Shown here: positions 5,612-54,450 of the stretch, piece after piece
Numbering within the stretch: the stretch's first letter is position 1
Layout of the letters: each line of letters opens with the position of its first letter
IMG/VR virus record: IMGVR_UViG_2541047857_000009
Source of the DNA: a virus
Taxonomy: Duplodnaviria; Heunggongvirae; Uroviricota; Caudoviricetes
DNA length: 64,000 nucleotides
Direction: 5' to 3' (one strand)
Notes under the pieces: model-generated
The model's input: the letters and a program-made list of their open reading frames with translations, nothing else
Databases searched by the model: none
Told to the model about the DNA's origin: nothing
Made by a program: the position numbers and the translations under genes

Positions 5612-6583
5612 TCAGTAATGAATTTTCGCGCAGGGGATCAGGTCATCTTTCAGAGCGGTAAGCACTTCGATAGCCTGCTCGCGGGTTAAGCTGGTTTGGC
5701 TGGTGAGCGCGTTAACGATGTTGGTGCCGACCGTCTTGCGGTGCTTAACGTCAGCTTCACGCTTTGCCTGCTCATCGGCGAGGCGCTTCTCTTCGGCCAG
5801 GCGGGCATCTTCGGCCTGTTTGGCCTTCAGGCGCTCGGCTTCAACCGCCGCGGCTTTTTCGCGTTCCGCCCGGGCTTCCGCTTCCTGCTTCTCGCGAGCT
5901 GCACGCTGTTCCGCTTCGACGCGCTGGCGCTCCGCCAGTTCAGCGCGGGCTTTCTCTTCGGCTTCACGGCGCGCTGCGGCTTCAATCTCCGCTTTGTGCT
6001 TCGCTTCGGCATCGCGGCGGGCTTGTTCTGCTGCTTCCTGTTTCAGCCGCTCATCACGTTCACGCTGAGCCTGTTCCGCCAGACGGCGCTGCTCTTCGCG
6101 GTCACGGTCAAAATCCTTGTTCATCAGTAGAGCCATTTCGTGGTCCGCTTCGAACTTGGCAGCCAGCTCCTGATCGAACCTGATGTTCATCTCCAGCGCT
6201 TCGGCGTGCATCGCGTTCATGGCTTCTTCAGCCTTAATGCGTTCCTGCTCGGCTTCCCATTCGGTGAGTGGGCGGCGGGTCGCATCGCGCAGCTCGTCGC
6301 AGGCATCAACGAATCGCTTAATTTCGGCCTCAGCCGGACGCACAGCCTCTTTCAGGCGCTTCAGGTACTCACGGCCCGGCTTTTCGATTGCCGTCTTGCT
6401 GCGGGACACCTGCGCTGCCAGAGAGGCAACACGGTCACGGCCTTTCTTCGTGGACAGGTCCGGCACTTCGTTTACAGCCTGGCGGATTTGCTCAAGGTAC
6501 GCGTCAAGGCCGCCCGCTACGTAAAGCACTGGGGCCTGTTCCGGCTTGATTTCGATGACAGTTAAGTCCGTTACTTCGCTCAT
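5612..6583 (-). CDS. hypothetical charged coiled-coil protein
   Basis: 323 aa; central about 150 aa of E/R/A/K/Q-rich repeats. Confidence 0.45.
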   Translation of the reverse strand: MSEVTDLTVIEIKPEQAPVLYVAGGLDAYLEQIRQAVNEVPDLSTKKGRDRVASLAAQVSRSKTAIEKPGREYLKRLKEAVRPAEAEIKRFVDACDELRDATRRPLTEWEAEQERIKAEEAMNAMHAEALEMNIRFDQELAAKFEADHEMALLMNKDFDRDREEQRRLAEQAQRERDERLKQEAAEQARRDAEAKHKAEIEAAARREAEEKARAELAERQRVEAEQRAAREKQEAEARAEREKAAAVEAERLKAKQAEDARLAEEKRLADEQAKREADVKHRKTVGTNIVNALTSQTSLTREQAIEVLTALKDDLIPCAKIHY

Positions 6584-8110: not shown

Positions 8111-8325
8111 AAAAAATCCTCTTGTGATTCAGCACAGCCCACTCAGCTTCGAATGGACTGGAATAAATCTTTTTTTCGCTTTGCCATAATTGCCGCTCTC
8201 CCTGAGCCCGCCTATGGTCCGACGCATGGTTTACTGTCGCGCCGTTCGACTGACCGAATCTCCACTTCGCCGCTGGCTAACTTCGCTCAGCTGTCGATGT
8301 TTCGTTTCGATGGGCTAACAATAGC

Positions 8326-8380
8326 TAAAGCGATTATTTCAGTCAATCGCCAAAACGATATTTATCATCGATAAAGTGAT
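8326..8380. promoter_or_regulatory. OL-like operator region
   Basis: GCGATT-N9-AATCGC and CGAT-N7-ATCG palindromes sharing the ATCGC half-site with OR. Confidence 0.4.
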
Positions 8381-8483
8381 AATTCATTGAATGTTAAAGC
8401 GATATTTTTTTTAAATGAAGTGGAAAAAAGTGATGTTGAAGGCGGTTTGATGGGAGCGAATTGGAGGTAGTAGATGGAGGTAT

Positions 8484-8506
8484 AAAAAAACCGGCTTTCG
8501 CCGGTT
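8484..8506 (-). terminator. rho-independent terminator ending the cI-lipoprotein operon
   Basis: CCGGC-tttc-GCCGG hairpin plus T7 on minus strand, 6 nt after lipoprotein stop. Confidence 0.65.
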
Positions 8507-8512
8507 GGTTAA

Positions 8513-8989
8513 TCAGTTGCAGTTAACTTTCCTGCCTACGAAGATCAAGTCTCCGTACTCGTCATTGGTATTCTTAAACCTAAGAACCTGTCCATTACGG
8601 ATAAAGGCCCAGTAGAGTTGCTTACCTGTGTATCCGCCATAAGAATTTTTTGCGTTCACGAAAACACACGTTGAGTAACCGTAAACAAAGTTCCTGTTCT
8701 CAACCATAACCTCTTTGCGGAGTGGAGAGAAGTCGCTGAATTTCGCGGAATCAGGATCCTTTAAGGCATCCTTGATTGTTTCCTGAACCAGCTCTTTATA
8801 GTTCTTTGGCTTTTCACCGACATCGGCTGTTTCAAGATTGATATTTCTAACCTTCTCGGCAAACTCGGCATCATGTTTTTTAGCCTCAGCCATCTTCTGA
8901 TCGTAATCAGAAGCAATACGGGCATAAGGTGGTTGCGCACACGCGCTGAGCAATGCAGAGGCGATAACTACAGCTGCTAATTTTTTCAT
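8513..8989 (-). CDS. lipoprotein (moron co-transcribed with cI)
   Basis: 158 aa; signal peptide with lipobox LLSAC; lower GC than flanks. Confidence 0.6.
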   Translation of the reverse strand: MKKLAAVVIASALLSACAQPPYARIASDYDQKMAEAKKHDAEFAEKVRNINLETADVGEKPKNYKELVQETIKDALKDPDSAKFSDFSPLRKEVMVENRNFVYGYSTCVFVNAKNSYGGYTGKQLYWAFIRNGQVLRFKNTNDEYGDLIFVGRKVNCN

Positions 8990-9024
8990 CTTCCCATCCC
9001 AGAGTAATTACTGTGTAAATTTTG

Positions 9025-9723
9025 TTATGCGAATCTTTTATAATCGACTGACTGTCTCAGCAGTACTTTAGCCATGACGTAGAACGCGTCCTCATCTTCA
9101 GGCTCGACGTACCATTTTTCGTAAATCGGGTTATCGGATATTACTGCCAGCCTGTCTCGCTGCATCTGCAGGCGCTTAACGTGCAGTGTCTTCCCAAATA
9201 CAAAGACGTATACACCGTCACCATCAAAGTGCGTAACACCGGTATCAACGAAGATCTGATCACCTGGTGAAATAGTGCCGTCCATGCTGTCACCATTAAC
9301 TGTGATCACTTTGACATGCGCAGCTGGACGATTGCCGAACAAGGCTCGCGCCTGCTCAGTCGTGTATTCAATGGCTCGGATAGTTTCAATGAAATCGCTG
9401 GTGACAATGCTGCCCGGCCCAGCGCTGGCTTTAACGTCGAGTACATCCACGCGGTAAATCCCATTCAGTGACGGCTTAACCTGGTATAGCGCAGACGGTT
9501 CTCTTGCGCTACTTGAAGCCATTTCCCCTTCACCAGTAGACAGCCACTCCGGCCGCACACCCAGAACAGAGGCAATCTCAACAGTTTTACGGGAGCCGTT
9601 CGCTTCCTTGAGTAGCTTATTGACGCTGGACTGAGCCATGCCGACATCTTTGGCTAACCGGCCCTGTGTATATCCAGCATATTTCATTGCCTGCGCCAGG
9701 CGCTCCGAGAATCCCATATTCAC
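9025..9723 (-). CDS. cI-like repressor (HTH + S24 LexA-like peptidase)
   Basis: N-terminal HTH; C-terminal VNGDSM serine and HVKRLQ lysine of Ser-Lys dyad. Confidence 0.8.
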   Translation of the reverse strand: MNMGFSERLAQAMKYAGYTQGRLAKDVGMAQSSVNKLLKEANGSRKTVEIASVLGVRPEWLSTGEGEMASSSAREPSALYQVKPSLNGIYRVDVLDVKASAGPGSIVTSDFIETIRAIEYTTEQARALFGNRPAAHVKVITVNGDSMDGTISPGDQIFVDTGVTHFDGDGVYVFVFGKTLHVKRLQMQRDRLAVISDNPIYEKWYVEPEDEDAFYVMAKVLLRQSVDYKRFA

Positions 9724-9748
9724 CTCTGTTAATGACTCCTTTAACTCT

Positions 9749-9790
9749 ATCGCTCAAGCGATTATTTAGCAAAAAATCGCCTATGCGATT
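9749..9790. promoter_or_regulatory. OR-like operators between cI and cro
   Basis: Perfect palindromes ATCGCTCAAGCGAT and AATCGC-CTAT-GCGATT. Confidence 0.5.
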
Positions 9791-9844
9791 GACATTCGCT
9801 AAAGTGATAACCATAATCGCTTTAAACTGATAGCTGAGGTGATT

Positions 9845-10096
9845 ATGAAGACCCCAACAGTAGAGAAGAACTCCGCAGTAGAGAAAGCGATTGCCATCGC
9901 TGGCAGCCAGAAAGAACTGGCAAAACGTTGCGGTAAAGCCCAGTCCACTATCTGCGACTGGCTTAACGGAAAGAAACGCATCTCCCCAGTTCACGTTCCT
10001 GAGCTGGTGAAAGCGGTTGGTGGTGAAATCCAGGCTCATGAATTCCGCCCGGACCTGCCTTCCATCTTTCCACACCCTGACAACCATGCCGCTTAA
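9845..10096 (+). CDS. Cro-like HTH regulator
   Basis: Divergent from cI; GSQKELAKRCGKAQSTICDWLNG HTH; GAGG RBS. Confidence 0.65.
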   Translation: MKTPTVEKNSAVEKAIAIAGSQKELAKRCGKAQSTICDWLNGKKRISPVHVPELVKAVGGEIQAHEFRPDLPSIFPHPDNHAA

Positions 10097-32350: not shown

Positions 32351-33019
32351 ATGACCGCTTTAACCGATATTGGCGAACTCTCTATCAGCGACAGCCGCGC
32401 AGGCGGTAAAGACTACCTGCTCAGGCCCTCATTCGAGGCTATGACGAGGATCGGCGCTCCAGAGGAGATTGTGCAGGCGTATGCCACCATCCACGGCAAA
32501 GACGTCGCACAGCTGGTTGAGGTGTGCGCTGGCATGCTGGGGCGCTTTCCTGAATGGCTATCACCTTCATTCAACCGTGCAGCCGAGAAGCTGTTATCGA
32601 CGTGCATGCTTGTGCTACAGGCGTGCTGTGAGGACGACCTGACGCCAATGATCGGCGAATGGAAAGGATGGCGGCATTGTGTCGTCTACCGCCCGGGCCA
32701 GATGCCTAAGAACGACATTATCGTACTGGCGCAGCACCTCATGCAGCACGGCATCGTCGGAAAGGCAAAGGTTCGCCAGTTGCAGCGCCACGAGACTGGC
32801 GAGCGCACTACGGAGTTCAAAGCCTTCGACTACATCAGCGCAGCACGTAGTCACTTTGGAATGAACCGCGCCGAAGCCTCTCAGTTAACGATGACCGAAT
32901 TTCAGATGCTGCTGGCGGCGAAATACCCCGATCAGAAAGGTTTCACTCGCGATGAGTATGACAGCATCGCCGACGAATACCTGGCTAAACAGGCTGCACG
33001 TAGAAAGAAAGCCCAATAA
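32351..33019 (+). CDS. tail assembly chaperone-like protein
   Basis: 222-aa ORF between major tail and tape measure. Confidence 0.4.
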   Translation: MTALTDIGELSISDSRAGGKDYLLRPSFEAMTRIGAPEEIVQAYATIHGKDVAQLVEVCAGMLGRFPEWLSPSFNRAAEKLLSTCMLVLQACCEDDLTPMIGEWKGWRHCVVYRPGQMPKNDIIVLAQHLMQHGIVGKAKVRQLQRHETGERTTEFKAFDYISAARSHFGMNRAEASQLTMTEFQMLLAAKYPDQKGFTRDEYDSIADEYLAKQAARRKKAQ

Positions 33020-33032
33020 ATTGGGCTCTATT

Positions 33033-33245
33033 TTAGAAAACCAACGTCAAATGCTCTCTACCAATCCGGGCTAAATCACTGACGTTCATTGGTACTCGGC
33101 CCCTAACGTCGATTTTAATGTGACCACCGGCATTAGCTACGGTTCTTATTAAGTCAGAAATATTCATTGGAATTGCACAATCGGCAGTAATTTCTATATG
33201 AACTCCAGTTCTGGCTATATCACTAATATTCATTGGTAACGGCAT
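33033..33245 (-). CDS. antisense small protein with three PMN[IV]SD repeats
   Basis: 70-aa minus-strand ORF; repeat codons differ synonymously (AGTGAT vs TCTGAC for Ser-Asp); GGAGG RBS. Confidence 0.35.
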   Translation of the reverse strand: MPLPMNISDIARTGVHIEITADCAIPMNISDLIRTVANAGGHIKIDVRGRVPMNVSDLARIGREHLTLVF

Positions 33246-33359
33246 AAATCCTCCATTGTTTTAAAAACAGCAATCATTTCAGCACGTTCATTACTTTTCT
33301 ATTGTGATGAGCCTTAAGATTCAGCGAAATACCATCGTCAGTACTATTTGGAGAATGAC

Positions 33360-36290
33360 ATGGCTGGTGAGAAGAACGCCGGTAGCATCGTTTATGAAAT
33401 CAGCGCTGACGTTGAGCCGCTGCTGCAGGGCGGGAAGCAGGCCATTGATGCTCTGGATAAATTGGATGCGGCAGCTCAGCAGTCCGGCAAGGGAATGGAT
33501 AACCTCGATCAAAGCACGTCTCAAACCGGATCCGCGTTTACTGAACTGGCTGGTTATGCCAACTCGATGGATAACCAACTGCGCAAGCTTAACACCAATG
33601 TGAGCGGGATCGCCCGCGCAATGGAAGAGGCCCGCAGCGGGACCGGTGGCGCCAACAGTGAGTTCAATCGCGCTGAATCCATCATCGAGGCGCTGGGTAA
33701 CCAACTCGCTGTGCTGGACGAAGCACAGGAGAATGGCGCTCGCAGTGCTGCCGTTCTGGCTGCCCAGTTGCGCGCCGGGTCAAAAGCGACCGATGAAGAG
33801 AAGCAGAAGATCGGCGAATTGACCGGCCGACTGTATGACATGAAAACAGGCGTGGAAACCGGAGCGAAAGGAACTGGAGCCTGGAAAAACAGCATGCAAC
33901 AGGCTGGGTACCAGGTTCAGGACTTTATCATTCAGGTTCAGGGCGGCCAGTCCGCGCTGGTAGCGTTTGCACAGCAGGGCTCTCAACTTGCCGGTGCATT
34001 CGGGCCGGGTGGTGCGGTAATTGGTTCTGTTATCGCACTGAGTTCTGTCCTGGCCGGTGTGCTCATCACTTCTCTGAATGGCGGCAAGAACGCCATGGAT
34101 GCGCTGAAAGACGCAGCCGAGGCGATGGACAAGGTCATTACCATTTCCCAAAATGGCGTGGCCGCTCTGTCTGATAAATACGCATTGCTCGCGAAAACGA
34201 ATACCGAAGTAGCAACGCTGATGCGTAACCAGGCACTGCTGGAATACAACGAGGCTATCAACAAGATACCGAAGGCGATTAGCGATGCTTCGAGCTCGTT
34301 ACTTTCCTTCGGCGATAAGGCACTTTCTGCATTTTCCGGTGGTTATGCGTCAGTCGATGGCTTTAACGATCGTCTGGCTACTCTTGAAATCACCACGGAT
34401 AACTATTCCGAGGCGATGAAGCAGGCATACGGTGCCGGGCAGGCATTCCAGGCGACCGCAAACAGCATTGGCAACACCGTCGGAGCCGTTGCCGACAAGT
34501 TCGGGATATCAGAGCAGAAAGCCTTCGAGTTCAGCAAGCAACTTTCCGATATTGCCAAAAACCCAACACCGGAAGCCCTGCAGCGACTTGCTACTGAACT
34601 GCAGAACACTCAGAGCTCAACCGAGAAAGGGCAGACTGCGCTCACGGCATTTGTTGGGAAACTGGTTGAGTTATCACGTGAAGCCGTCATTGCTAAAGGT
34701 AATGTTGCTGCTCTGAAGCAGGAAACGGATAACCTTACCGCCGGGCAGAAGAACCTTATCAAGCAGTCAGAGCGTAACCTTGCGCTGTCAAAACTGCAGG
34801 GTGAGGCTCGCGCCCGACTTCAGGCGCAATATGCCGCTGAAGATGCGGGGTTTGCAAAAGATGATCCGCACGCCAAACAAATGGAAAATGACGCTGCCGC
34901 TACGTACAAAAATACGCAGGCGCAGAAGACACTTCAGTCCGAGCAGAAGAAAGGTGCTTCCCAGGCTGATTCTATTGCTCAGAAACTGGCGAACCTGAAA
35001 CAGCAATCAGAGCTCGCTGCCGACTCAACAAGCAAGCTGAGCCGGGAACAAGCGATCCTGAATGCTCAGCAGTCACTTGGTAAAGGCGCAACGAAGGAGC
35101 AGATCGCGCTGGCTGGGCAGTACGCCGCAACAAAATGGGACACTGCTAACGCCATTAAAGCGCAAGCGGCAGCTGAGAAGCTTCTCCCTGAGGCGCGTGA
35201 GAATGCCAGTTACAAGCAGGATGTAGAGGATCTGAACACCGCTCTGGCTGCGAAGAAAATCAGTCAGGAGCAGTTCAATCAGACTTCCGAGCGACTGGAG
35301 GCAACTCACCAGGCAAACCTCGCCAAAATCCGCGCCCAGCAGGCTGTGACGCCACAGCAGGATGCAGTCGGTGGAGTTGACCCTGTTCAGCAACTTGCTA
35401 ACGAGAACGCTCGCAAGCTAGCGCTCATTCAGGCATTCGAACAGCAGGGGCTTATCACTCACCAGAATGCGCTCATGCTGCGCGCTACAGCTGACAAGGA
35501 GTATGAGCAGGCTCGCATCGCTGCCCAATGGGAGATCTTCCGCAATCAGAGCGCAGGTAATGAAGCACTGGCGGCGTCCTTCGATGCACTGGCCGGTAAT
35601 GCGTCCAACGCCTTAACCGGCATCATTACCGGGAGCATGTCAGCGTCTGATGCCCTGCGCTCGATCGGGAATACCGTACTGAACAGCCTCATCAACACCT
35701 TCGTTCAGATGGGCGTTGAGTGGGTGAAGTCAGCCATCATGGGGCAGACGGCCACCACTGCTGCAGTTGCAGCATCGACCACTGCTCAGGCGGCAGGCAT
35801 TGCCACTACCACGGCGACGTCTACCGCGGCGGCGGCGGCTACGACAGCGGCCTGGACTCCGGCAGCCATTATGTCATCCATCGCCTCATTCGGTGGTGCG
35901 GTGGCGATCGGCATCGGAGCTATGGCTGGCATCCTGGCGCTGTCTGGCAAGCGAAAGAACGGCGGGCCCGTTTCGGCTGGCGGAATGTACCAGGTCGGCG
36001 AAGGCGGGATGCCTGAGATTTACCAGGCCAGCACCGGAAAGCAGTACATGATACCGGGCGACAACGGTCGAGTGATCAGCAATAAGGACATGGCTTCAGG
36101 AGGTGGTGGCGGGGTGGTAATCAACATCCAGAACTACACGTCATCCTCGGTCGATGCGCAAGCTGGCACGGATGCCAATGGGGGCGTGACCGTCGATGTC
36201 ATCGTCGCTGACCTGAATAATGGCGGGCCGATTAGCAGCGGTATAACCAGCAACTTCAATGTCAAACGCAAGCCAAGGGGGCAGGGCTGA
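33360..36290 (+). CDS. tail tape measure protein
   Basis: 976 aa, alpha-helical/coiled-coil rich with Ala/Gly C-terminal segment. Confidence 0.8.
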   Translation: MAGEKNAGSIVYEISADVEPLLQGGKQAIDALDKLDAAAQQSGKGMDNLDQSTSQTGSAFTELAGYANSMDNQLRKLNTNVSGIARAMEEARSGTGGANSEFNRAESIIEALGNQLAVLDEAQENGARSAAVLAAQLRAGSKATDEEKQKIGELTGRLYDMKTGVETGAKGTGAWKNSMQQAGYQVQDFIIQVQGGQSALVAFAQQGSQLAGAFGPGGAVIGSVIALSSVLAGVLITSLNGGKNAMDALKDAAEAMDKVITISQNGVAALSDKYALLAKTNTEVATLMRNQALLEYNEAINKIPKAISDASSSLLSFGDKALSAFSGGYASVDGFNDRLATLEITTDNYSEAMKQAYGAGQAFQATANSIGNTVGAVADKFGISEQKAFEFSKQLSDIAKNPTPEALQRLATELQNTQSSTEKGQTALTAFVGKLVELSREAVIAKGNVAALKQETDNLTAGQKNLIKQSERNLALSKLQGEARARLQAQYAAEDAGFAKDDPHAKQMENDAAATYKNTQAQKTLQSEQKKGASQADSIAQKLANLKQQSELAADSTSKLSREQAILNAQQSLGKGATKEQIALAGQYAATKWDTANAIKAQAAAEKLLPEARENASYKQDVEDLNTALAAKKISQEQFNQTSERLEATHQANLAKIRAQQAVTPQQDAVGGVDPVQQLANENARKLALIQAFEQQGLITHQNALMLRATADKEYEQARIAAQWEIFRNQSAGNEALAASFDALAGNASNALTGIITGSMSASDALRSIGNTVLNSLINTFVQMGVEWVKSAIMGQTATTAAVAASTTAQAAGIATTTATSTAAAAATTAAWTPAAIMSSIASFGGAVAIGIGAMAGILALSGKRKNGGPVSAGGMYQVGEGGMPEIYQASTGKQYMIPGDNGRVISNKDMASGGGGGVVINIQNYTSSSVDAQAGTDANGGVTVDVIVADLNNGGPISSGITSNFNVKRKPRGQG

Positions 36291-40158: not shown

Positions 40159-42741
40159 ATGGCCACTACACCTACTAATCTGCCAGTACCTAGCGAATCC
40201 CCGCGCGACCTGAAATTTAACGCAGGGAAAATTGATGAGTTCGTGACTTCATTCGCTCTTAGTTATATTGACCGCTTTGGAGATGAACACTACACGATTG
40301 AAGGATTAAGATGGCTTGCACAGCGGGCTATAGCTGAATTTGGATGGATACCTATCGGGACATTTCAGAGCGGCGCTGTTATAACTCTACCAAATCAAAT
40401 ATTAAAAGATGAAAATGATGGAGAATACTATAGATGGGATGGGCCGCTTCCTAAAATCGTTTCTCCTAATTCAACACCTGATAGTGCCGGGGGAATAGGT
40501 AAAGGCAAATGGATAGGTGTAGGCGATGCCAGCTTACGTAGTGCTATTACTGAGACAACGAAAAAATACACTACATTTACAGACGCCATCAATTCTACTA
40601 TTGATCTAGTTATCGGGTGCGTTATTACTGGTGGAAGAGTTTCCATCAATGACGGAGGTGGCGGCATATACGTCAGGAACGGAACTGGCACGGCAGGAGA
40701 TACAGATGGAGGAAGTTACTTTGTTACCCCTGATGGGTCAAGGTTTGACTTAGTATCACCTGCAAATATTTCAACTTTTGGCGGCGTTCCTGGGCATGAC
40801 TACCGTGCTGCTCTTGACGGTATAAAATCGTATGTTTCAACAAGAGATAAGGTAATTAGAATTAATTCTAAAACTATTGTTAGTATGGTATTTACACCAG
40901 AGATTCCTGCTGGATACTGGAATGGATTCATACTTGACGTAGATGATAGCGTGACAATTAATACCGCAAGCGATGAAGCTGTCAAATCACCATTGGTAAA
41001 ACTTGTCAGACCTGTAAAATTCTTTTTTACTGGTAATAGCACCAGTTATTTATTACGTTCAAGTGTTGGAATTACAAAAGGTGAATATACACCACTTGTT
41101 CCAGGTACATTACCAACTCCGCCGATCATAAAAAATGCAAACTACACAGATAATAAAACGTTATTTTGTGATATTCAGGATAAAGAAACTCCGGTCTTGA
41201 CGGTTTTTACCTCTGGATGGTCTTTTCTGTCAGGTGTATGGCCTATGGGTGTTGTTGCGGATACACCTGCAGCGTCACTGGCTGGGGATGCAGTATCAAT
41301 TCCAGCCCCTACAGGGAATCTTGTTTTTGCTGCATACAGCAGAGTGAAGCCGTGCTCTGAATATTTCTTGTCGATGTATGAGGGTGACAACACCGGTGGT
41401 CTGCCATGCGTTGTGGTTGAAGCTGAAAGTATGCGTTGGATCTATTACGAGGATCATTTTGGACATGGTAATTTAATTGAGGGAACAATTGGCGGAGCAT
41501 ACTCTACAAAAAGCATTGCATATGCTGGATCTGATACTCATGCTTCACAATGGCTAAAAAACAGTATTGCATCCGTTCGTGTTGATACGCTTAAGTCATT
41601 CACTATCCTGGTTAACGGGATAGAGCGAGTTACAATTCGTCAAACCGGGAGAATCATTGGTCGTGTAGGATTTGGATCACTTGGCGATGGCGGTAAGTAT
41701 ATGTCTGTCTTCTATCCATACATTATCGAAAATCGACAATACCGCTCTGCAAAACCGATAAATATCGCTGTTGTAGGCGATTCAATCACTGATGCCTCTA
41801 TGGGAAATGGATGGGTACAGTTCGCGCAACAAGCACTAGAAGGAACTCACGGCATTCGCGTTGGACGTATGCAGACAATTGCAATAAATGGGTATGCATC
41901 AGGAGATATCGCTAATATATTTAATGTCACATCGTTGGATGATATCGATGTAGTGCTTTTCCAAATCGGAGTGAATGATATTCAAAGGCAATCCGGACGA
42001 GAGGCATTACGAAATAACGTTAAGCAGATGATGCTGACTGCAAATAACCTTGGGATTCCCTGCATTGTATCTTTGCCTACACAGTTCTATACCAGAGATC
42101 AGAGTGTTACGTTAACCGGGGTTGCTGGTTATGGACAGCCTTCGGCAAATTACGAGCTTGGGGCGCTTTACAGGGCGATACTTGCCAGCACAGTAGCTGT
42201 TCGTAATACAGAGGTTAATCAGCCGCTTAATGCCCTGAATACTGGTTCTCTTGACGATCTCGGACCAATCGTAGCCGAATATCTCCTGACAAATCAGGAC
42301 CCTGTTGTTATGGACAACATTCACCCGACCACATACGGAAGAATTCTTCTCGGCTTGTCAAATGCCAGAGCTATTGCATCACATATGTTCGGTAGACGTA
42401 ATGATCCTATAATTAACCACTGGATGCCAGGTGCGTGGGGGGCAAATAACTGGTCAGTAACTTCACTGGTTCGTGCTGCTGTAACATCATATCCCGATGG
42501 TAAAATTGCATTAACTGGCACTATCGCTAACATCGGAACAGGTATAACCGCCGACGGTACGACAGTATGCAACCTTCCGTTGAGCATCTCGCCAGTTAGG
42601 AAAATGGCATTTTCTGTTACAAAACTTGATGCAAGTGGCCTCCCTATTGGACAGGGTAATATTGTTATTGATACAAATGGAACTGTTAAAATATACGGAT
42701 TTCAAACGGGGAATGTGTCACTAGACGGGGTGTTATATTGA
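40159..42741 (+). CDS. tail fibre/tailspike with C-terminal SGNH (GDSL) esterase domain
   Basis: 860 aa; SGNH blocks IAVVGDSITD, QIGVNDI and DNIHPT; low GC. Confidence 0.65.
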   Translation: MATTPTNLPVPSESPRDLKFNAGKIDEFVTSFALSYIDRFGDEHYTIEGLRWLAQRAIAEFGWIPIGTFQSGAVITLPNQILKDENDGEYYRWDGPLPKIVSPNSTPDSAGGIGKGKWIGVGDASLRSAITETTKKYTTFTDAINSTIDLVIGCVITGGRVSINDGGGGIYVRNGTGTAGDTDGGSYFVTPDGSRFDLVSPANISTFGGVPGHDYRAALDGIKSYVSTRDKVIRINSKTIVSMVFTPEIPAGYWNGFILDVDDSVTINTASDEAVKSPLVKLVRPVKFFFTGNSTSYLLRSSVGITKGEYTPLVPGTLPTPPIIKNANYTDNKTLFCDIQDKETPVLTVFTSGWSFLSGVWPMGVVADTPAASLAGDAVSIPAPTGNLVFAAYSRVKPCSEYFLSMYEGDNTGGLPCVVVEAESMRWIYYEDHFGHGNLIEGTIGGAYSTKSIAYAGSDTHASQWLKNSIASVRVDTLKSFTILVNGIERVTIRQTGRIIGRVGFGSLGDGGKYMSVFYPYIIENRQYRSAKPINIAVVGDSITDASMGNGWVQFAQQALEGTHGIRVGRMQTIAINGYASGDIANIFNVTSLDDIDVVLFQIGVNDIQRQSGREALRNNVKQMMLTANNLGIPCIVSLPTQFYTRDQSVTLTGVAGYGQPSANYELGALYRAILASTVAVRNTEVNQPLNALNTGSLDDLGPIVAEYLLTNQDPVVMDNIHPTTYGRILLGLSNARAIASHMFGRRNDPIINHWMPGAWGANNWSVTSLVRAAVTSYPDGKIALTGTIANIGTGITADGTTVCNLPLSISPVRKMAFSVTKLDASGLPIGQGNIVIDTNGTVKIYGFQTGNVSLDGVLY

Positions 42742-42777
42742 AGGTAAGGGGTGATAAAACACCCCTATTTTATTGCA

Positions 42778-43863
42778 CTAAATAAAACGCCTTGTAAATT
42801 TTGCTATTTTTTTCTCAATCAACGAGTGAACTAAGCACCCTGTAATAATGCTAAATAACACATAAAAAGCAAGGTACATAAATACACTGGTATGCAGATG
42901 TAGTTCCAGTCGCTCCCACCAGTGCGCAAGCAATGATGTAAATAAGCCATGTATGAGGTATATGCAGTACGAAGCATTACCTAAGTAAACTAATATATTC
43001 GGAGTCTTTACTTTACCCTCAAGGCTAATTGTTGCCCATACGATGTAAAAAGAAAACGCTCCCCATATAAGAGGTCTGTGCCATAAGTTCCCTACATACG
43101 TAGTTATTAAATATTTTTCAAGGATATAAAATAAAGGCAACGAACAAATCAATATAGCAGTAGCAAGTTTGGCGTTAAGAAATATTTTTGATATGTACAG
43201 TCTGTACATAAACATACCCAAAGCAAACTCAATCATTACTGGCTGAGAGATTACCTCAATTGGAGGGAAATACGCTTTAATAAAATTTGCGGCATGCTCG
43301 TTTTTAACTAAAATGTTACAAACGATAACTATTGTCACAAATGAAATTTCTATTTTCTCTATTTTTGAAACGCCAATTGCAATAAAAATAGCGAAGATAG
43401 CATAAAAGAAAAATTCAAACTGAAGAGTCCACCCAACACCTAGTATTGGTCCCTTATCCCAATGGGTGAACGTTATGCTCCTAAAAAAATACACTAAATC
43501 TATTTTATCAGATGGAAACCAAAAAAGTAACGGTCTTGCTGGGGAGGTGATTTGGTATGAAACCAAATAAGAGACATAAACAGCACATGCCGTAAGGATA
43601 ATATATAAAGGAAGTATCCTAACCAATCTTCTTAAAAAGAACTTTGCCGCTGAAATATTAAATGGCCCATCAGCTTTTTTACCTCCATAAGCAATAAAAG
43701 GCATTATAAACCCACTAATTATAAAAAATATATCAACACCTATACCACCAAGGCCTGACATCCTTATTCCATACATTACAATCTCAGAATGTGCAATGAC
43801 GACAATCAATGCGGCAAAGAAGCGCAATACCTGTATGTTATAAATTGTTTGTTTGTTATCCAT
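42778..43863 (-). CDS. acyltransferase family 3 (OafA/OatA-like) integral membrane protein
   Basis: 361 aa, about 10 TM helices, N-terminal LRFFAALIVVIAHS motif; AT-rich; convergent with tail fibre. Confidence 0.7.
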   Translation of the reverse strand: MDNKQTIYNIQVLRFFAALIVVIAHSEIVMYGIRMSGLGGIGVDIFFIISGFIMPFIAYGGKKADGPFNISAAKFFLRRLVRILPLYIILTACAVYVSYLVSYQITSPARPLLFWFPSDKIDLVYFFRSITFTHWDKGPILGVGWTLQFEFFFYAIFAIFIAIGVSKIEKIEISFVTIVIVCNILVKNEHAANFIKAYFPPIEVISQPVMIEFALGMFMYRLYISKIFLNAKLATAILICSLPLFYILEKYLITTYVGNLWHRPLIWGAFSFYIVWATISLEGKVKTPNILVYLGNASYCIYLIHGLFTSLLAHWWERLELHLHTSVFMYLAFYVLFSIITGCLVHSLIEKKIAKFTRRFI

Positions 43864-44215: not shown

Positions 44216-44587
44216 ATGGAGTCCCAATTCCCCGCAGCAGATTATGCAGTAGAGCGTATCTCACTGGACGGCAGGATCATTACAAGCCCAGCGTCGACAT
44301 ATTTGATGCTGGCAGCAGAGACTATCTGGCGCGCAGGCATTATGAAAGATGCAATGCTTGTCGTGGACAGCGCTGTACATCCCATTGATGGTTCTATTAT
44401 CGTATGCCAGTTCAACGGTGAACTTCGTCTTAAGCGCTTGAGGTTAGCTCCTGCTCGATGCCTTGAAGATCTTAACTATCCAGACCGGCATCAGATGCTG
44501 ACGTCTGAAACTCTCATTATGGGAGTTGTGACATATATCATCAACGATGCCCGTAGTGGTGAGTTTGACGACAGCCCGGTGATCTGA
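44216..44587 (+). CDS. umuD: UmuD'-like protein lacking N-terminal cleavage segment and catalytic Ser
   Basis: Aligns with UmuD from about residue 26; GDSM replaced by ETIW; Lys retained (LKRLRL); GGGAG RBS. Confidence 0.65.
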
Positions 44588-45855
44588 TGTTTGCCCTGGT
44601 TGATGTAAATTCATTTTATGCGAGTTGTGAGACGGTATTCAGGCCTGACCTGAAAGGAAAACCGGTTGTTGTGCTGTCGAATAACGATGGCTGCGTGATT
44701 GCGCGCTCTGCTGAAGCGAAACTGCTCGGCGTCAAAATGGGTGACCCGTACTTCAAACAGAAAGACCTGTTCACGCGGTGCGGAGTTGTCTGCTTCAGCA
44801 GCAATTACGAGCTCTATGCGGACATGTCCAACCGGGTGATGACAACGCTCGAAGAGATGTCGCCGCGCTGCGAAATATACTCAATAGACGAGGCTTTCTG
44901 TGACCTTACCGGGGTTCGTAATTGCAGAGTTCTGGAAGACTTTGGACAGGAACTAAAGGACGCTGTATACCGTAACACGCGGCTTGCTGTCGGCGTTGGG
45001 ATAGGGCAGACAAAGACACTGGCGAAACTGGCAAATCATGCTGCAAAACGATGGCAGCACAAGACAGGTGGAGTTGTTGACCTGTCTAACGTCGAGCGTC
45101 AGCGCAAACTGATGGCAGCACTTCCTGTTGATGAGACATGGGGAGTGGGCCGGCGCATTACCAAAAAGCTCGAGGCTATGGGGATCAAGACGGTTCTCGA
45201 CCTGGCTGATACTGACATACGATTTATTCGTAAACATTTTAATGTGGTTTTGGAAAGGACTGTGCGTGAGCTGCGAGGAGAGCAGTGTCTAGAACTGGAA
45301 GAGTTTGCACCCGTAAAACAAGAGATTGTATGTAGCCGCTCATTCGGCGAACGAGTCACTGAATACGATGCAATGCGGCAGGCTATCTGTAGCTACGCGT
45401 CGCGAGCAGCGGAGAAGTTGCGTGGAGAGCATCAGTATTGCCGGTTTATCTCTGCGTTCGTCAAAACGTCACCATTCGCGCTTAATGAGCCATATTACGG
45501 TAACAGCGCATCGGTGAAGTTGCTGACACCGACGCAAGATAGCCGGGACATCATTGCGGCGGCCACTAAGTGCCTTGATGCTATATGGAAAGATGGTCAC
45601 CGATACCAGAAAGCGGGCGTGATGCTCGGAGACTTCTTCAGTCAGGGCGTCGCACAACTTAACCTGTTTGATGACAATGCACCTCGCGTCGGAAGTGAGA
45701 AGCTGATGGAAGTTCTGGATCAACTCAACACTAAAGGCGGGAGAGGTACGCTGTATTTTGCAGGGCAGGGCATCCAGCAGCAGTGGGCGATGAAACGAGA
45801 AATGCTTTCGCCGCGGTACACAACAAGATTTTCCGATCTGCTGCGCGTTAAGTAA
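44587..45855 (+). CDS. umuC: UmuC, Y-family translesion DNA polymerase subunit
   Basis: 422 aa; [15 protein letters not shown]...SIDEAF Y-family signature; ATGA-coupled to umuD'. Confidence 0.85.
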
Positions 45856-46519
45856 CGAGTTCAATCAACTCCGGCCCCTGATTTTTCACATTACCAACGG
45901 AGCGCGTCACGGCGTGCCAGATAAACTTGTCGGCGGAAACCGCTCCGTCGGCTGCTATCTCTTCCGCTTCTTTCCCGCCTATATCCTGGCGCATCCACTC
46001 ACGGGCCGCTTCAGGTGACAGAACAAGCGGCCGTCTGTCGTGAATGTCGACCAGTCCTTTATCAGCTGCAGATGTCACTATCAGAAAGCCCTCAGCGTCA
46101 TCACCGCGCTCAAATGGCGTGCTGCCTATAGCTGCCATAAAGATTGGCTGACCGTCGGCACGGTGAATGAAGTAGGGCTGTTTCTTGTCGCCTTCCTTTT
46201 TCCATTCGAACCAGCCATCAGCAAAGCAGATCGCCCGGCCATGTTGCCAGAGAGGTTTGAACATTCGGCTGGTGGCTGCGGTTTCGACGCGTGAGTTAAT
46301 CAGCGGCGGTTTATCCCACCACCCGGGAGCGTATCCCCAGAACACTGGATCGAGATGCAGCTGCTCGTCGCGTTCGCTCAGCAGCAGAACTTTGGTGCCT
46401 GGCGCAACGTTGTAGCGTCCAATCGGCTCCGGGTCGTACGCGATGTCGCGATCGGCTTCATCCGCCAGGTAAGCCAGGTATTCTTCACGCGTTTGAGCTT
46501 GTGCAAAACGTCCACACAT
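45848..46519 (-). CDS. SOS response-associated peptidase (SRAP/YedK family)
   Basis: 223 aa starting MCGR with catalytic Cys2; 3' end overlaps umuC by 8 bp. Confidence 0.75.
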
Positions 46520-49136: not shown

Positions 49137-49162
49137 TGGTCATCAAATGACCAGTTTTTTCC
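49133..49162 (+). terminator. ompW terminator hairpin overlapping int stop codon (candidate attL core)
   Basis: Palindrome AAACTGGTCAT-CAA-ATGACCAGTTT plus T-tract; int stop codon lies inside it. Confidence 0.6.
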
Positions 49163-50273
49163 ATTCCTTACCGCGTGCGTCGTTGTAAATATCGGTCATT
49201 TTTTGATTCGAATGGCCCAGCAAAATTTTGGTATCAACCCCCTGCTCTCTGAACAATCGCTCTGATAAAGATCTCTGCTCATGGAAAGAGGGTGGGGTGC
49301 CATTAGCACGCCAGTTGTAATCCACAGAATCCCGGGCTTTTTTAAATGCAACGGTTAATGTTGCTGGCTTAACCATCCCGCCGCGCTTAGCTGTCCCTTT
49401 CGCGTGATGGTGGTGCAATAGCCACGGACTAAGAACGCAATCGCGGCAGGATGACACCACATCATCTAGGGTGAGATTTAATTTATCGCAACGCAGAGCC
49501 AGAGGGATGGCAATCCGGGTTCCTGTTTTTTGCTGTTCGACATGAAGATAACCATCCCGGATATCCGAAAATTGCATTTTGCAAATATCTGAAAGGCGCT
49601 GGCCTGTCATCAGTGCCAGCAGCATACCGCGCTGTAAAAAGTAACCATCCTTTTCCGCTGCGTTATAAATCATCATCCACTCATCAAAAGTCAGTCGCTG
49701 TCTTGATATCCGCACCTGCGGTTTTTTTGCCGATTCTGCAGGGTTAAAGCCTGGCGGGACATCGCCCGTTTGCTGAGCTTCCCGGAAAACATCGATCAGT
49801 ACTTTCCTGAAAATTTGTCCCATTCTGTTATGTCCTCTGGCCTTGTACTCTTCCAGTACTGATACCACATCTTTTACGGTTATGGCATCTAACGGTCTGG
49901 TGCCAAAACGTTCATCAAATACCCTGAGAGGGGCCGCTTTCTGTTTCAGCGTGTTGAGTTTGATCTCGCCGTTTTCATATCTTTCCTGTTGAATTTTTCT
50001 GTAATTATTCAGAAAAATGGTAACGGTTGATGAACCGCCGGTGTCACTAATAATTTTCTCCTGCAGACTGAGCATTTGTTCCATTTGCTGCCGGGCAAGA
50101 CGGCTGTTCGCTTCTGCTGCAATAGTTTCTGCCAGTTTCTGGTCAATACTGCCGAGACCGTGATTTTTGCCTGTTATGGGATGCCTGTAACGCCAGTAAA
50201 CTTTGTTATTTCTTTTGTCAAAATACGGAGATAATCCCGGAACATCGGTTTTATATTTTCGCGGGCGCGCCAT
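49143..50273 (-). CDS. int: tyrosine integrase
   Basis: 376 aa; C-terminal catalytic region with LLGHSNQKMTDIY tyrosine motif. Confidence 0.8.
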   Translation of the reverse strand: MARPRKYKTDVPGLSPYFDKRNNKVYWRYRHPITGKNHGLGSIDQKLAETIAAEANSRLARQQMEQMLSLQEKIISDTGGSSTVTIFLNNYRKIQQERYENGEIKLNTLKQKAAPLRVFDERFGTRPLDAITVKDVVSVLEEYKARGHNRMGQIFRKVLIDVFREAQQTGDVPPGFNPAESAKKPQVRISRQRLTFDEWMMIYNAAEKDGYFLQRGMLLALMTGQRLSDICKMQFSDIRDGYLHVEQQKTGTRIAIPLALRCDKLNLTLDDVVSSCRDCVLSPWLLHHHHAKGTAKRGGMVKPATLTVAFKKARDSVDYNWRANGTPPSFHEQRSLSERLFREQGVDTKILLGHSNQKMTDIYNDARGKEWKKLVI

Positions 50274-50499
50274 CTTCCAGTATCCTCTTCAAAGCAGGGT
50301 GATCTGTGGCGATCACCTCCGGCTTGTTTACCATTCCGACAAAGCGAGCTTGCGGATCCACTCGCCAGCGTCTTCCAACTTTTTTGGGGAGAGGAAATAT
50401 CATTCCGGCTTTAGCGTATTTACTTAACGTACTCGGGGTAGGGACCGGTTCACTGAATTCCTCCTTTGCCCACTCAGTGAGCAGAATAAGTCTTGCCAT
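50251..50499 (-). CDS. xis: excisionase-like protein
   Basis: 82-aa ORF overlapping int start, upstream in same operon. Confidence 0.5.
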   Translation of the reverse strand: MARLILLTEWAKEEFSEPVPTPSTLSKYAKAGMIFPLPKKVGRRWRVDPQARFVGMVNKPEVIATDHPALKRILEDGAPAKI

Positions 50500-50563
50500 G
50501 AGCGTCGTTCGCTAATCATGGTCGCCGCCACTATAGCTGGTGGGCAACGACCGGGGTTGAACA

Positions 50564-53035
50564 TTAAAAATCAGCCTGATTTGGGATCAGTTTTTGCCAG
50601 ATAGCTGAAACGTATTTTGCCTGGTAACGGGCGTCATCAAGTGCATTATGGCGCTCACCTTCGAATGGAATAGCCGTTCTGGCATCGAAGTCTATGGCTT
50701 TCCCCAGCTCAACGATTGTGCGTACATCGCGATCGTTGTAGTAACGCCACGGGCAGGGGATCCCCTGCCGTTCGTATGAACGGCGCAAAATCGTGTTGTC
50801 GAAGTTGGCTCCATTTCCCCAAACCTGAACAAAAAATTCACCGGAGTTTTCGTCGATAAATTCCCGCAATTGTAACAGTGCATCATCTAACGGGATTTCA
50901 TCGGTCATAATGGCAGATTGCGCTTCGCGTGATTGCTTAAGCCACCATTTAATGGTGTCCCGATCAATGACTCCGCCAGCAGTTTCCAGATCGATAGTCT
51001 TACTAAATTCCGGTCCCATATCTCCGGTTTGCGGATCGAAAAATATTGCACCTATTGAGATGATCGGGGCATCAGGATTTTTTCCCATGGTTTCAAGGTC
51101 GATCATTAGATGGTCACACGTCCTGCTGGTGGATGTGATTTCGTGATGACCGTTCACCTTAATTGGGTGATCTGCCGTCTCGCCAGTTTCATTATCGCTA
51201 TTGTGATGCTGATTGCCGCCAGTGTTCTCCTTGTGTGGATGTTCAGCGCCTTCCATTTCCTCCGGATCATCTTCCTGAACTTCAACCTGATACTCTTCAT
51301 CGAATGTTTCTTGGTATGTTGCGTCGCCCATCACCGCGCCACAATCAGGACAGTTGCCGCCGCCGGTCTGACCGCAGGCGGTGCAGGCTTTTTCCACTTC
51401 CTGGTGCGCCACTGGTTCAGGCTGTTTCGTTTCTGGCTCGTTTTGTAACGCATTTGGACTGTTTTGTTCCGCTTTTTGGTAGTTCCGTTCCGATTCATGC
51501 TGGTTCTGGCTCACAGAATCGCGGGTCTGGATCCCCTTAATCCATTTCGGATCATTCGGGTCACTAATCCCTTCAACAAATTCACCACGTGATGCAGCAA
51601 GCAACTTATCGGCGTCAGGCTGGCTGATATTGGCTGCCTGCATAATTTTGTTTACTTCGTCAGCGGTAACTTTTATCGGCTCTGGTTGTTCTGAATCTTC
51701 AGCGGTATCTACATTTTGCGGTAAGCCCGTGTATGTGCCATTTTTTCGGGCAAAATATTCTTCTTTTGTGATTTCAGTGGCGCCAGCAGCCAGTGCCTTA
51801 TCCAGACCAGAAAGTTTGTTTGCGCGACCGTATTTTTCTCCGTCCTTATCTGCGAAGAGGAAATAGAACGGCCCCTCACGCTCTACAGATGGTTCAGCTT
51901 CCGGCGCGGTTTCATTTTTTGGGATATCAGATACCTCAGTTTCCACTGCATCAGTTTGTGTTTCTGATGACTGGAGAACATCAACAGTGCCCAGGTCTGT
52001 TTCTTCATTCTCAAACACGCCCTTTGTCGTCAGGTATTCGCAGATATATTTGTTCAGTGCTACGGGATCTTTGTGAATGTCGATCGGACGCTCACGGACA
52101 AGGCCAAAAATAGTTTGGCGGTCGTAGCGAAGGGCATCAGGCTGTTTGCGCATTGATGCCGAGATACGCTTCCAGTCTTCGCGGTCGTTGTCGATAACTT
52201 CTTTTTTTGCCCAGCGATGGATGCTGCCGTCAATGTTTCCGGCATCCACATCACCAGGCCAGAGAGCGTAGGCCAGTTCGTCATCCAGTGTTTTCCATGT
52301 CTGCTTGTATTCGCGATGAATGGCAGCAATGACCGGGCTGATTTTTCCTGTTGAATTTTCAGTGTACTGTTGATTGGCTCTGGCGCGGGCGAGATCAACA
52401 ACAGACGTGTATTTTCCGGTTTCCTTGCGTTCACCTTCGCGACGTTTTTTCCAGATGCGCATCTCTGCCTGAATTTCGGGCCATTTAGCACCAGGAATAC
52501 ATTTATGCTTAACCCACCCAATGGCGTGCAACTTAAGCTCCGGATACATGGCGTTAACTTCTGGCATTTTCATCAACGCTTCAACGATATGTCCGTCGAA
52601 TGTTGCCATGTCTTCCTGCAACAATTCCTGTGCGCTAATAACCATATCAACGGTGATGTTTTCACATGTGTCGAACTTAACCATGACAGCGTTCTGTACT
52701 TCAGGGGCCAGCTTGTCAAAAGTGACGTTCATCGGATCGGATTCAGTCTCGACCGGAACAAAGGAAGCAGACGCCTCATCCCAGCGGTTTTCCTGCATAT
52801 ATTCAGCATCCCAGGAATCGAGGGCAGGGCGGGGTATACCGGGTTTATCCTCGCAAACAAGAAATTTATAAGCGCAGTCCTGAGCAGCCGGATAATGTTC
52901 CAGGAATTGCCAGTGAAATTTTGCGCGGGCGCGACGTTCATCACCGGCTTCAATGGCAGTGGCTACAGCGACGGCACCTTCTTCCTTTATTGCCTGTTCG
53001 TCCGGAATGGCGGCGCAAATAAAGACTTTACTCAT
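50564..53035 (-). CDS. large exonuclease with C-terminal DEDDh (DnaQ-like) 3'-5' domain
   Basis: 823 aa; MIDLETMG, VWGNGANFD and HNALDDARYQ motifs; internal CTACG..CPDCG zinc-ribbon-like pair. Confidence 0.6.
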   Translation of the reverse strand: MSKVFICAAIPDEQAIKEEGAVAVATAIEAGDERRARAKFHWQFLEHYPAAQDCAYKFLVCEDKPGIPRPALDSWDAEYMQENRWDEASASFVPVETESDPMNVTFDKLAPEVQNAVMVKFDTCENITVDMVISAQELLQEDMATFDGHIVEALMKMPEVNAMYPELKLHAIGWVKHKCIPGAKWPEIQAEMRIWKKRREGERKETGKYTSVVDLARARANQQYTENSTGKISPVIAAIHREYKQTWKTLDDELAYALWPGDVDAGNIDGSIHRWAKKEVIDNDREDWKRISASMRKQPDALRYDRQTIFGLVRERPIDIHKDPVALNKYICEYLTTKGVFENEETDLGTVDVLQSSETQTDAVETEVSDIPKNETAPEAEPSVEREGPFYFLFADKDGEKYGRANKLSGLDKALAAGATEITKEEYFARKNGTYTGLPQNVDTAEDSEQPEPIKVTADEVNKIMQAANISQPDADKLLAASRGEFVEGISDPNDPKWIKGIQTRDSVSQNQHESERNYQKAEQNSPNALQNEPETKQPEPVAHQEVEKACTACGQTGGGNCPDCGAVMGDATYQETFDEEYQVEVQEDDPEEMEGAEHPHKENTGGNQHHNSDNETGETADHPIKVNGHHEITSTSRTCDHLMIDLETMGKNPDAPIISIGAIFFDPQTGDMGPEFSKTIDLETAGGVIDRDTIKWWLKQSREAQSAIMTDEIPLDDALLQLREFIDENSGEFFVQVWGNGANFDNTILRRSYERQGIPCPWRYYNDRDVRTIVELGKAIDFDARTAIPFEGERHNALDDARYQAKYVSAIWQKLIPNQADF

Positions 53036-53127
53036 TTTGTTTTACCTCATTACAGATTTAAGGGTGAACAAATCCCTGCCATTGCTGGCATATAAGAATG
53101 AAATCGGATGTTTATTACGGAACTGTT

Positions 53128-53504: not shown

Positions 53505-53673
53505 TATCGCGTCCTCAACAATGAATTTTGTGATGCGGTGCCTGGTGCTTCCAGGTGACGTTAACCAGTTAACAATTAACGCCGGATACAGAGAATCCAC
53601 CCATAACACTGTTTTTGGTTTTAACTGTTCCGCGTGCGCTTAGCCGCATTCACCGCATCACAAAATTCACTTT

Positions 53674-54449: not shown

Positions 54450-54450
54450 A

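Follow-up and report, generated by a model that had tools for sequence, protein, structure and literature searches.

What does a lipoprotein gene do behind the repressor gene of a lambdoid prophage, and how did it come to lie there? The question is raised by a 64,000-nucleotide stretch of Caudoviricetes DNA (IMG/VR record IMGVR_UViG_2541047857_000009, hereafter the window), in which a gene for a 158-amino-acid lipoprotein is placed between the cI stop codon and the leftward operator region (OL) of a lambdoid Escherichia coli prophage. A sequence-only reading of this locus had described a low-GC moron in the place of lambda rexAB, had proposed superinfection exclusion at the envelope as its role and had not recognized its family. 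Our data support a self-contained, horizontally acquired moron, which we assign to the family of gp20 of Salmonella phage ES18. This is a family of mobile cassettes that temperate phages place where expression from the prophage, or autonomous expression, is possible. Cargo genes in repressor operons and morons in tail operons are already known kinds of genes. What is new is that a very large protein family fills these roles with an unusually regular placement. We tentatively favor superinfection exclusion as its function and weigh this against other readings below.

Several observations support a real gene. The profile of PHROGs family phrog_2320 matches residues 1–158 (E = 3.1e-37), 446 close homologues were retrieved, and AlphaFold2 models the protein with a mean predicted local distance difference test score (pLDDT) of 88.9, exceeding 90 from about residue 30. 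The N terminus, MKKLAAVVIASALLSAC, displays a lysine-rich n-region, a hydrophobic core and the lipobox L-S-A-C, in which Cys17 is followed by Ala-Gln; the 158-codon reading frame and the LLSAC lipobox are thus as first described. The lipobox agrees with the pattern [LVI][ASTVI][GAS]C of signal peptidase II substrates, and the family alignments show little or no variation at Cys17. The protein is predicted to be lipidated and, because alanine occupies position +2 and aspartate is found there in none of the 23 aligned relatives displayed, to be sorted to the outer membrane. The lower GC content relative to the flanks was confirmed: it is 43.8% in the gene, against 50.9% in cI and 53.5% in the prophage, and ranks in the 6th percentile of 477-bp windows. 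The OL intergenic region beside the gene is equally AT-rich. The window is part of an E. coli chromosome, and several complete genomes match the region at 100%.

The surroundings of the gene are those of an immunity region (table 1). In lambda, cI is followed by rexA, rexB, the terminator timm and OL, in that order; the order cI, cargo gene, terminator, OL of the window therefore matches that of lambda. The repressor, which combines helix–turn–helix (HTH) and Peptidase_S24 domains, is encoded on the same strand as the lipoprotein, 35 bp away. Its open reading frame (ORF) opens at a GTG codon (9723), and the ATG two codons further on, at 9717, is probably the true start, fitting the 230 amino acids called on other contigs. 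The hairpin of this strong terminator starts six bases past the lipoprotein stop codon and is probably the counterpart of timm, closing a cI–lipoprotein transcript. Sites resembling ATCGC-N4-GCGAT are grouped at 8321–8380, in OL, where they overlap the pL-like promoter. The only two perfect copies of this site in the 64 kb both belong to the rightward operator (OR) cluster between cI and cro. A terminator-like match at 9790–9775 was discarded, as it coincides with one of the OR operator palindromes. What had been read from the letters alone, namely a gene directly 3′ of a cI-like repressor, a clean terminator ahead of OL and a slot equivalent to that of rexAB, is borne out, the arrangement for co-transcription with cI being confirmed as a layout. 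The spacer also contains a 16-bp near-perfect palindrome, CAGAGTAATTACTGTG (9000–9015), mostly kept in the sister cassette L124; it could be due to chance, or be an RNA-processing site or a protein-binding site.

The likeness to lambda rexA-rexB is one of position, as cargo placed after cI and ahead of a terminator and OL, with expression expected from the promoters of the repressor. The lambda cargo consists of two genes encoding a cytoplasmic sensor and an inner-membrane protein, whereas the window carries a single exported lipoprotein. At permissive thresholds, no Pfam or PADLOC match to RexA or RexB was obtained, leaving genomic position as the only common feature. Because the window encodes one exported lipoprotein without Rex homology, abortive infection of the Rex type is not expected.

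Comparison with related prophages identified the gene as an insertion. The prophage of locus L109, whose cI region is about 75% identical to that of the window at the DNA level, aligns over positions 9025–10090, exactly from the cI stop codon through cro, and again over 8304–8384 in OL, the OL region as a whole being 86.6% identical. Both belong to the same immunity type. As the distance from cI to OL is 116 bp in this related prophage and 640 bp in the window, we interpret the lipoprotein gene as an insertion; the additional DNA of the window corresponds to the spacer, the lipoprotein gene and the terminator. Neither L109 nor L110 has a gene in the interval between cI and OL. Cargo is also missing from the second lambdoid prophage of the window, in the interval from its repressor to its leftward early genes. 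The identical protein always follows this cI, and the genes to the left of pL vary (seven places, among the matches listed). Divergence in two sister cassettes is greater for the lipoprotein (83% and 75% identity) than for the accompanying cI (92% and 89%). The locus thus displays three marks of a moron in the sense of Juhala and Hendrix: a site that is empty in close relatives, a deviating base composition and a terminator of its own. A promoter of its own, another of these marks, is missing, since the consensus scan of the window detected neither a promoter-like site nor a terminator between cI and the gene, which would therefore depend on the cI promoters. The earlier suggestion of a moron is strengthened by the insertion resolved against a relative without the gene, by the low GC content and by the terminator.

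The closest relative from an isolated phage is ES18 gp20 (YP_224158), with 71% identity, and the two proteins share similarity over their full length, the lipobox, both signature motifs of the family and the C-terminal cysteine. The place of the ES18 gene is different: its neighbors are the tail chaperone region on one side and the tape-measure gene on the other, and it does not follow the repressor. Its depositors annotated it as "possible moron; function unknown," flanked by terminators. The ES18 annotation by Casjens had thus already flagged gp20 as a possible moron, and the gene has long been present in databases as a hypothetical protein. The "gp20" of the paper by Tai is a different protein. 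None of the 446 close homologues, which come from Enterobacterales, Pasteurellaceae and further groups, has a name beyond "hypothetical" or a precomputed Pfam domain. In agreement with the sequence-only reading, which did not recognize the family, no library searched assigned it a function: phrog_2320 is listed as of unknown function; Pfam, NCBIfam and PADLOC gave no match, any listing being below threshold and driven by the signal peptide; 0 of 52 family members matched Pfam; and a profile search against solved structures returned only a signal-peptide match to TrwH.

This family is very large. A profile search of 1.84 billion representative proteins collected 7,865 clusters at E ≤ 1e-3 and 1,824 at E ≤ 1e-10, the wider set (about 7,900) being taken at 50% identity. 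Most members are lipoproteins, characterized by the motifs LKDPDSAKF and VNAKNSYGGYTG and by a conserved pair of cysteines. Invariant positions in 52 aligned members are L76, D78, P79, S81, A82, G104, C108, N112-A113-K114-N115, G118-G119-Y120, G122, and C157, and the forms LKDPxSAxF and VNAKNSxGxYxG are still present in distant phage copies. Among 80 distant homologues from species-representative genomes, most are lipoproteins of 125–170 residues with a lipobox, and they span Proteobacteria, Planctomycetota, Bacteroidota, and Bdellovibrionota. A set of unusual members (P0290 from Pseudomonas helleri, P0162, and P0219) includes one that its source names an integron cassette protein, along with the ECF-sigma and PDZ fusions described below.

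The anatomy of the cassette is conserved across the family. The GC content of the gene is about 8 points below that of its flanks in all loci of the two main context classes (28/28 and 14/14). A terminator-like hairpin follows within 120 nt in 28/28 and 13/14 of them, compared with frequencies of 19% at the ends of other ORFs and 7% in random segments. Upstream of 24 of the 60 tail-cluster cassettes, we detected an element resembling an extended −10 box, TGnTAnnnT, which is found in 5.9% of controls. The hexamer TAGGAT is conserved in 13 cassettes, mostly 36–39 nt ahead of the start codon, and is followed by a leader ending in GGGGATAGGGAT-ATG. Seven loci (L132, L164, L140, L143, L015, L128, and L045) share this leader, in which TG-n-TAGGATT precedes the start codon by about 37 nt and GGGGATAGGGAT immediately adjoins the ATG. 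These observations suggest that the leader may be a portable promoter and ribosome-binding unit travelling with the gene. The leader in the window, TGGGATGGGAAG-ATG, resembles GGGGATAGGGAT, and the promoter-like part is not retained. The window cassette seems to have been taken up without a promoter of its own and to depend at present on those of cI. Low GC content and cassette structure by themselves indicate mobility only and, as no phenotype is known, the gene might be a neutral hitchhiker of no benefit to phage or host in its present position. We consider this very improbable: the exact protein occurs in 753 collection blocks, with 331 contigs recorded in its cluster entry, its amino acid sequence is strongly conserved and its model confidently folded, and distant taxa show repeated capture at the same two slots.

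To describe these slots, ORFs were called in 160 related loci and neighboring genes were labelled by BLASTP against proteins of annotated phages. The labelling set is enterobacterial, so that distant phages in the genome set would go unlabelled. Among 78 loci from IMG/VR and 78 from species-representative genomes, respectively, the family gene was found immediately upstream of the tape-measure gene, on the same strand, in 22 and 6 cases; elsewhere within three genes of tail genes (K/I, M/L, I/J, or past the tape measure) in 19 and 13; directly after an S24 repressor in 11 and 3; between antirepressor and endolysin genes, in Pseudomonas D3-like phages, in 5 and 1; in other lysogeny or accessory regions in 6 and 1; and without any labelled neighbor in 15 and 54. 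The same slots are used in isolated phages. In ES18 and KpF5, it precedes the tape-measure gene, and in Pkon1 it lies beside it. Fraca, Medea1, and AUS531phi have it ahead of tail gene I, and in Fraca and AUS531phi it is preceded by K. The P2-like phage SEN5 carries it between ogr and the integrase gene, and PAJU2 beside the O-antigen acetylase and antirepressor genes. The order repressor then lipoprotein also exists in two Pseudomonas loci (L065 and L077) and in a metagenome-assembled genome of Xanthobacteraceae, an alphaproteobacterium (L094), with repressors 23–27% identical to the cI of the window. A third Pseudomonas locus (L071) shows the same order by eye, its upstream HTH gene having no significant similarity to this cI. 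In these four loci, the lipoproteins are 31–38% identical to that of the window and the gaps measure 2–56 bp. As the same order recurs at such deep divergence, the arrangement is either ancient or has arisen repeatedly.

Most phage copies belong to the late tail operon, where they share the coding strand and frequently come just ahead of the tape-measure gene, and a strict consensus scan detected no promoter before ES18 gene 20. The protein could accordingly be a late product of the lytic cycle, sparing progeny or their DNA from loss to lysing cells and debris, or aiding tail or tape-measure function. This seems improbable to us, as the window and 13 other loci have the gene in a repressor operon, which is off during lytic growth, and the cassettes have their own terminators and promoter-like −10 elements. 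Moreover, close relatives lack the gene, which is thus not essential for virion production, and a lipoprotein exported to the periplasm is not expected to act in the cytoplasmic assembly of tails. A role as o-spanin or in lysis was not favored either: the sole similarity to lysis genes of ES18 (endolysin and Rz) lies near 19.0–19.7 kb, and the protein is a folded domain of 141 residues, not a short spanin-like peptide.

Several individual loci deserve a description. In Escherichia phage Fraca (L096, 2959–3648), and also in L075, L188, and L190, two different lipoprotein genes are arranged in tandem between K and I. The first encodes a short family member and the second an unrelated 111-amino-acid lipoprotein without Pfam match, whose similarity to Cor is limited to the first 35 residues or so, mostly signal peptide. 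Cronobacter sakazakii has a 64%-identical chromosomal copy (L003–L006, 5001–5480; 129 collection blocks) with no phage genes nearby. Its setting is conserved, with lon, hupB, ppiD, and an acyl-CoA thioesterase gene on the upstream side and a gene for a metallo-beta-lactamase-fold protein and queC on the downstream side. In Actinobacillus pleuropneumoniae (L007–L009, 4019–5477), an islet between efp and the glutaminyl-tRNA synthetase gene comprises three genes: an HTH regulator gene on the minus strand, an ORF of 110 amino acids and the gene for a family member. The islet resembles what might be left of an immunity region after extensive reduction. In the window itself, the interval between the chaperone and tape-measure genes (33019–33348, about 330 bp), where ES18-like relatives carry a family member, contains stop codons in one translated frame.

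The AlphaFold2 model consists of the signal helix, a long helix (residues 27–48) and a helix (64–75) packed on an antiparallel sheet of five to six strands. Because Cys108 and Cys157 form an invariant pair, they probably make a disulfide in the periplasm, and the conserved residues appear to cluster on the surface. Fold searches, as advocated in the sequence-only reading, identified no functional relative: Foldseek obtained nothing significant from the PDB, and uncharacterized viral proteins were returned from BFVD. Candidate folds considered for the domain were the NTF2-like, VirB8-like, and cystatin-like folds. SPOR or PG_binding_1, both peptidoglycan-binding domains, are fused to some members of the family, whereas other members have a C-terminal PDZ domain or are tandemly repeated. 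One is the C-terminal domain of a 470-amino-acid protein that begins with an extracytoplasmic function (ECF) sigma factor followed by a hydrophobic stretch. These architectures are consistent with an extracytoplasmic binding module acting near the cell wall.

Such a module need not act against phages. It may be a general periplasmic binding or inhibitor module that phages borrow to the benefit of host fitness, a form of lysogenic conversion with no bearing on phage infection. It could then act on peptidoglycan hydrolases or lysozymes, on delivered toxins, or on a signal of envelope stress; alternatively, it might confer resistance to serum or stress as lambda Bor does. The size of the family at the permissive threshold, its many chromosomal and non-phage contexts, the invariant polar motifs, the fusions to SPOR, PG_binding_1, and PDZ together with the ECF-sigma/anti-sigma-like architecture, and the member named as an integron cassette protein all argue in this direction. 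Yet this explanation, which is the main rival and which we still judge rather unlikely, leaves the strong bias toward the tape-measure and tail-tip slots unexplained, and no sequence match to known inhibitor families was found in Pfam. A predominance of bacterial homologues is also compatible with exclusion, as illustrated by HK97 gp15 (PMC3594210).

The sequence-only reading had envisaged masking of an outer-membrane receptor. T5 Llp and the Cor proteins of phi80 and N15 act on FhuA in this manner. By analogy, the lipoprotein of the window might attach, on the periplasmic face, to a specific receptor of the outer membrane, so that adsorption or triggering of phages using that receptor fails. 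The predicted outer-membrane anchor fits this proposal, as does the enrichment of the family in tail clusters: the known blockers are small lipoproteins encoded near tail genes, ES18 cor adjoins the tail-fiber genes, Lpp021 and Lpp010 are encoded in a structural cluster (PMC11893012), and Llp binds FhuA according to a preprint (bioRxiv 10.64898/2026.03.26.714494). The tails of the carrier phages tell against it. The window prophage resembles ES18 in its terminase, portal, and head genes (about 73–88% amino acid identity), has the DUF6246 tail chaperone in common with it, and the C-terminal third of its tape-measure protein (about 420 residues; 34899–36155) is 63% identical to that of ES18. Its tail tip is unlike that of ES18 and like that of a Klebsiella locus (L010), with an 825-amino-acid protein, a tailspike with a GDSL esterase domain and an opposite-strand Acyl_transf_3 gene. 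ES18 has lambda-type M-L-K-I-J genes and a Cor homologue (gp32). Carriers with differing host recognition thus include ES18 with its lambda-J-type protein, the window prophage with its 825-amino-acid tip protein and tailspike, Pseudomonas D3-like phages, and a P2-like myovirus. Because tail tips and hosts differ between carriers, the family is not tied to one receptor-binding apparatus, and the comparison of ES18, L010, and the window rules out that the gene tracks one tail-tip type, as expected for self-exclusion via the phage's own receptor. Receptor masking also fits poorly with the presence of Cor besides gp20 in ES18, with motifs that are invariant across phyla, where blockers would be expected to follow variable receptors, and with a preferred slot that adjoins the tape-measure gene and not that of the receptor-binding protein. 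Nor does the family belong to Cor: an hhalign comparison of its profile with ES18 gp32 aligned 21 columns, all in the signal peptide. Overall, we regard masking of a receptor as quite unlikely.

In HK97, the moron gp15 is encoded between the genes for the tail chaperone and the tape measure; it prevents entry of the genome, and most of its homologues are from bacteria and not from phages (PMC3594210). It is an envelope protein expressed from the prophage (PMC3594210), and its slot is the commonest one for the gp20 family in phage contigs. It is, however, a small inner-membrane protein of the YebO family and not a lipoprotein, and the likeness concerns slot and description only. Ltp of Streptococcus thermophilus phage TP-J34 is a lipoprotein of the lysogeny module, transcribed in the prophage, that blocks DNA injection; it differs by its Gram-positive host and by its anchor on the cytoplasmic membrane. 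A Pfam scan at E ≤ 0.1 reported a below-threshold DUF6491 and no lipoprotein exclusion family; whether Pfam includes an Ltp model was not checked. Lpp021 and Lpp010 of mEp phages are lipoproteins from the structural-gene cluster that exclude phages (PMC11893012), and with Cor (phi80, N15, and ES18 gp32) and T5 Llp they form a set of superinfection-exclusion lipoproteins encoded in or near tail genes (PMC11893012; PMC3594210). The protein of the window is about twice the size of Cor-type proteins and has a conserved folded domain found across phyla.

Because the characterized parallels HK97 gp15, Ltp, and Lpp021/Lpp010 are all exclusion proteins, we favor superinfection exclusion at the envelope, most probably after adsorption and within the periplasm. 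This is a tentative preference, to which we would give somewhat less than an even chance. The lipoprotein would be made in the lysogen on the repressor transcript; its helix of about 22 residues and a compact, probably disulfide-stabilized alpha+beta domain would reach into the periplasm, where the domain would shield the lysogen from superinfecting phages. Acting after adsorption, it might keep the DNA conduit of the incoming phage from forming, by binding either the tail tip or tape-measure protein of that phage or a conserved component that is periplasmic or associated with peptidoglycan. A conserved periplasmic target agrees better than a variable surface receptor with the differing tail apparatus of the carriers, the presence of Cor in ES18, the invariant motifs, the SPOR and PG_binding_1 fusions and the chromosomal members.

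A number of points weigh against exclusion. No family of PADLOC-DB v2 was recovered at E ≤ 1, and our literature search returned nothing on function, structure, or experiment for any family member. No pRM was identified in the OR region, so that co-transcription of cI and the lipoprotein gene is deduced from the layout, and the promoter-like elements of the other cassettes are consensus matches only, not proof of transcription. Many members lie outside recognizable phage DNA, as do the 54 of 78 species-level loci without a labelled phage neighbor (with the enterobacterial label set) and the C. sakazakii copy between the thioesterase gene and queC. The signature motifs do not vary between Proteobacteria and Planctomycetota, which hints at a housekeeping ligand. 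In addition, not all cargo of tail-gene clusters serves exclusion, lambda lom being an example (PMC3594210).

A bolder proposal is, in our opinion, unlikely. The motifs DPxSA...NAKNxxGxY and the disulfide may define the conserved binding or catalytic site of a periplasmic module that spans phyla and had not been recognized before, acting at the peptidoglycan against the DNA channel of the tail. It would serve as a chromosomal defense and, in phages, as a portable promoter–gene–terminator cassette lodged in the repressor operon or beside the tape-measure gene, and it could neutralize the proteins of the tape measure or tail tip once ejected, or the activity by which they degrade the wall.

Prophage cargo coexpressed with the repressor is a productive source of new phage-resistance mechanisms, and this family, whose thousands of clusters have neither a Pfam model nor a solved structure nor an assigned function, is regularly placed beside the tape-measure gene or just behind the repressor in phages of several bacterial orders. 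If exclusion operates as a periplasmic block to genome entry, the family would be the Gram-negative equivalent, and a widespread one, of Ltp and HK97 gp15, and it would offer a way to study how the tails of siphophages traverse the periplasm, a poorly understood step. As the gene is small and the prophage is present in sequenced E. coli isolates, the hypothesis is directly testable.

Table 1. Coordinates of the features of the immunity region and of other genes in the window
Feature	Coordinates	Strand	Basis or detail
OL operators and pL-like promoter (8346-8318)	8318..8405	-	Operator-like repeats at 8321, 8346, 8367, 8390
Intrinsic terminator	8506..8489	-	AACCGGC-GAAA-GCCGGTT then T7; 7-bp stem, 5 G-C pairs, GAAA loop
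Lipoprotein gene, 158 aa, ES18 gp20/phrog_2320 family	8513..8989	-	ORF, phrog_2320 match, 71% identity to ES18 gp20, AlphaFold2 model
Predicted signal peptide and lipobox (MKKLAAVVIASALLSA followed by C)	8939..8989	-	Sequence reading; Cys17 codon 8939-8941, Ala at +2
Spacer, 35 bp, cI stop codon to lipoprotein start	8990..9024	-	Ribosome-binding region TGGGATGGGAAG and 16-bp near-palindrome
cI-type repressor (HTH and Peptidase_S24)	9025..9723	-	PF00717 E=2.6e-18, Phage_CI_repr, phrog_4
OR operators and pR-like promoter (9789-9817, plus; 11/12 sigma-70 match)	9749..9843	.	Operator-site scan
Cro-like regulator (YdaS/HTH_3), divergent from cI	9839..10096	+	PF15943 E=9.4e-14
UmuC/ImpB-family polymerase gene, between the two prophages	44587-45855
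SOS-response-associated peptidase (SRAP) gene, between the two prophages	45848-46519	-
Second-prophage integrase	49143-50273	-
Second-prophage 823-aa protein, Rv2179c-like exonuclease domain	50564-53035
Second-prophage S24 repressor, then cro-like gene	54899-55537	-
Second-prophage antiterminator Q	62707-63528

Other parts of the window were also annotated. The second lambdoid prophage occupies positions 49143–64000, after a short host-like stretch. In the leftward early operon of the first, a 323-amino-acid protein (5612–6583) contains a long, highly charged, repetitive stretch rich in Glu, Ala, Arg, and Lys, with a locally elevated GC content of 60–65%; the corresponding gene on other contigs has no Pfam match on record. 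At 40159–43863, an 860-amino-acid tailspike with a TSP1/Gp66 N-terminal domain and the GDSL esterase domain is followed by the opposite-strand Acyl_transf_3 gene. This association suggests a phage that recognizes surface polysaccharide and, as a prophage, modifies it, which would be a second candidate exclusion function in this first prophage.

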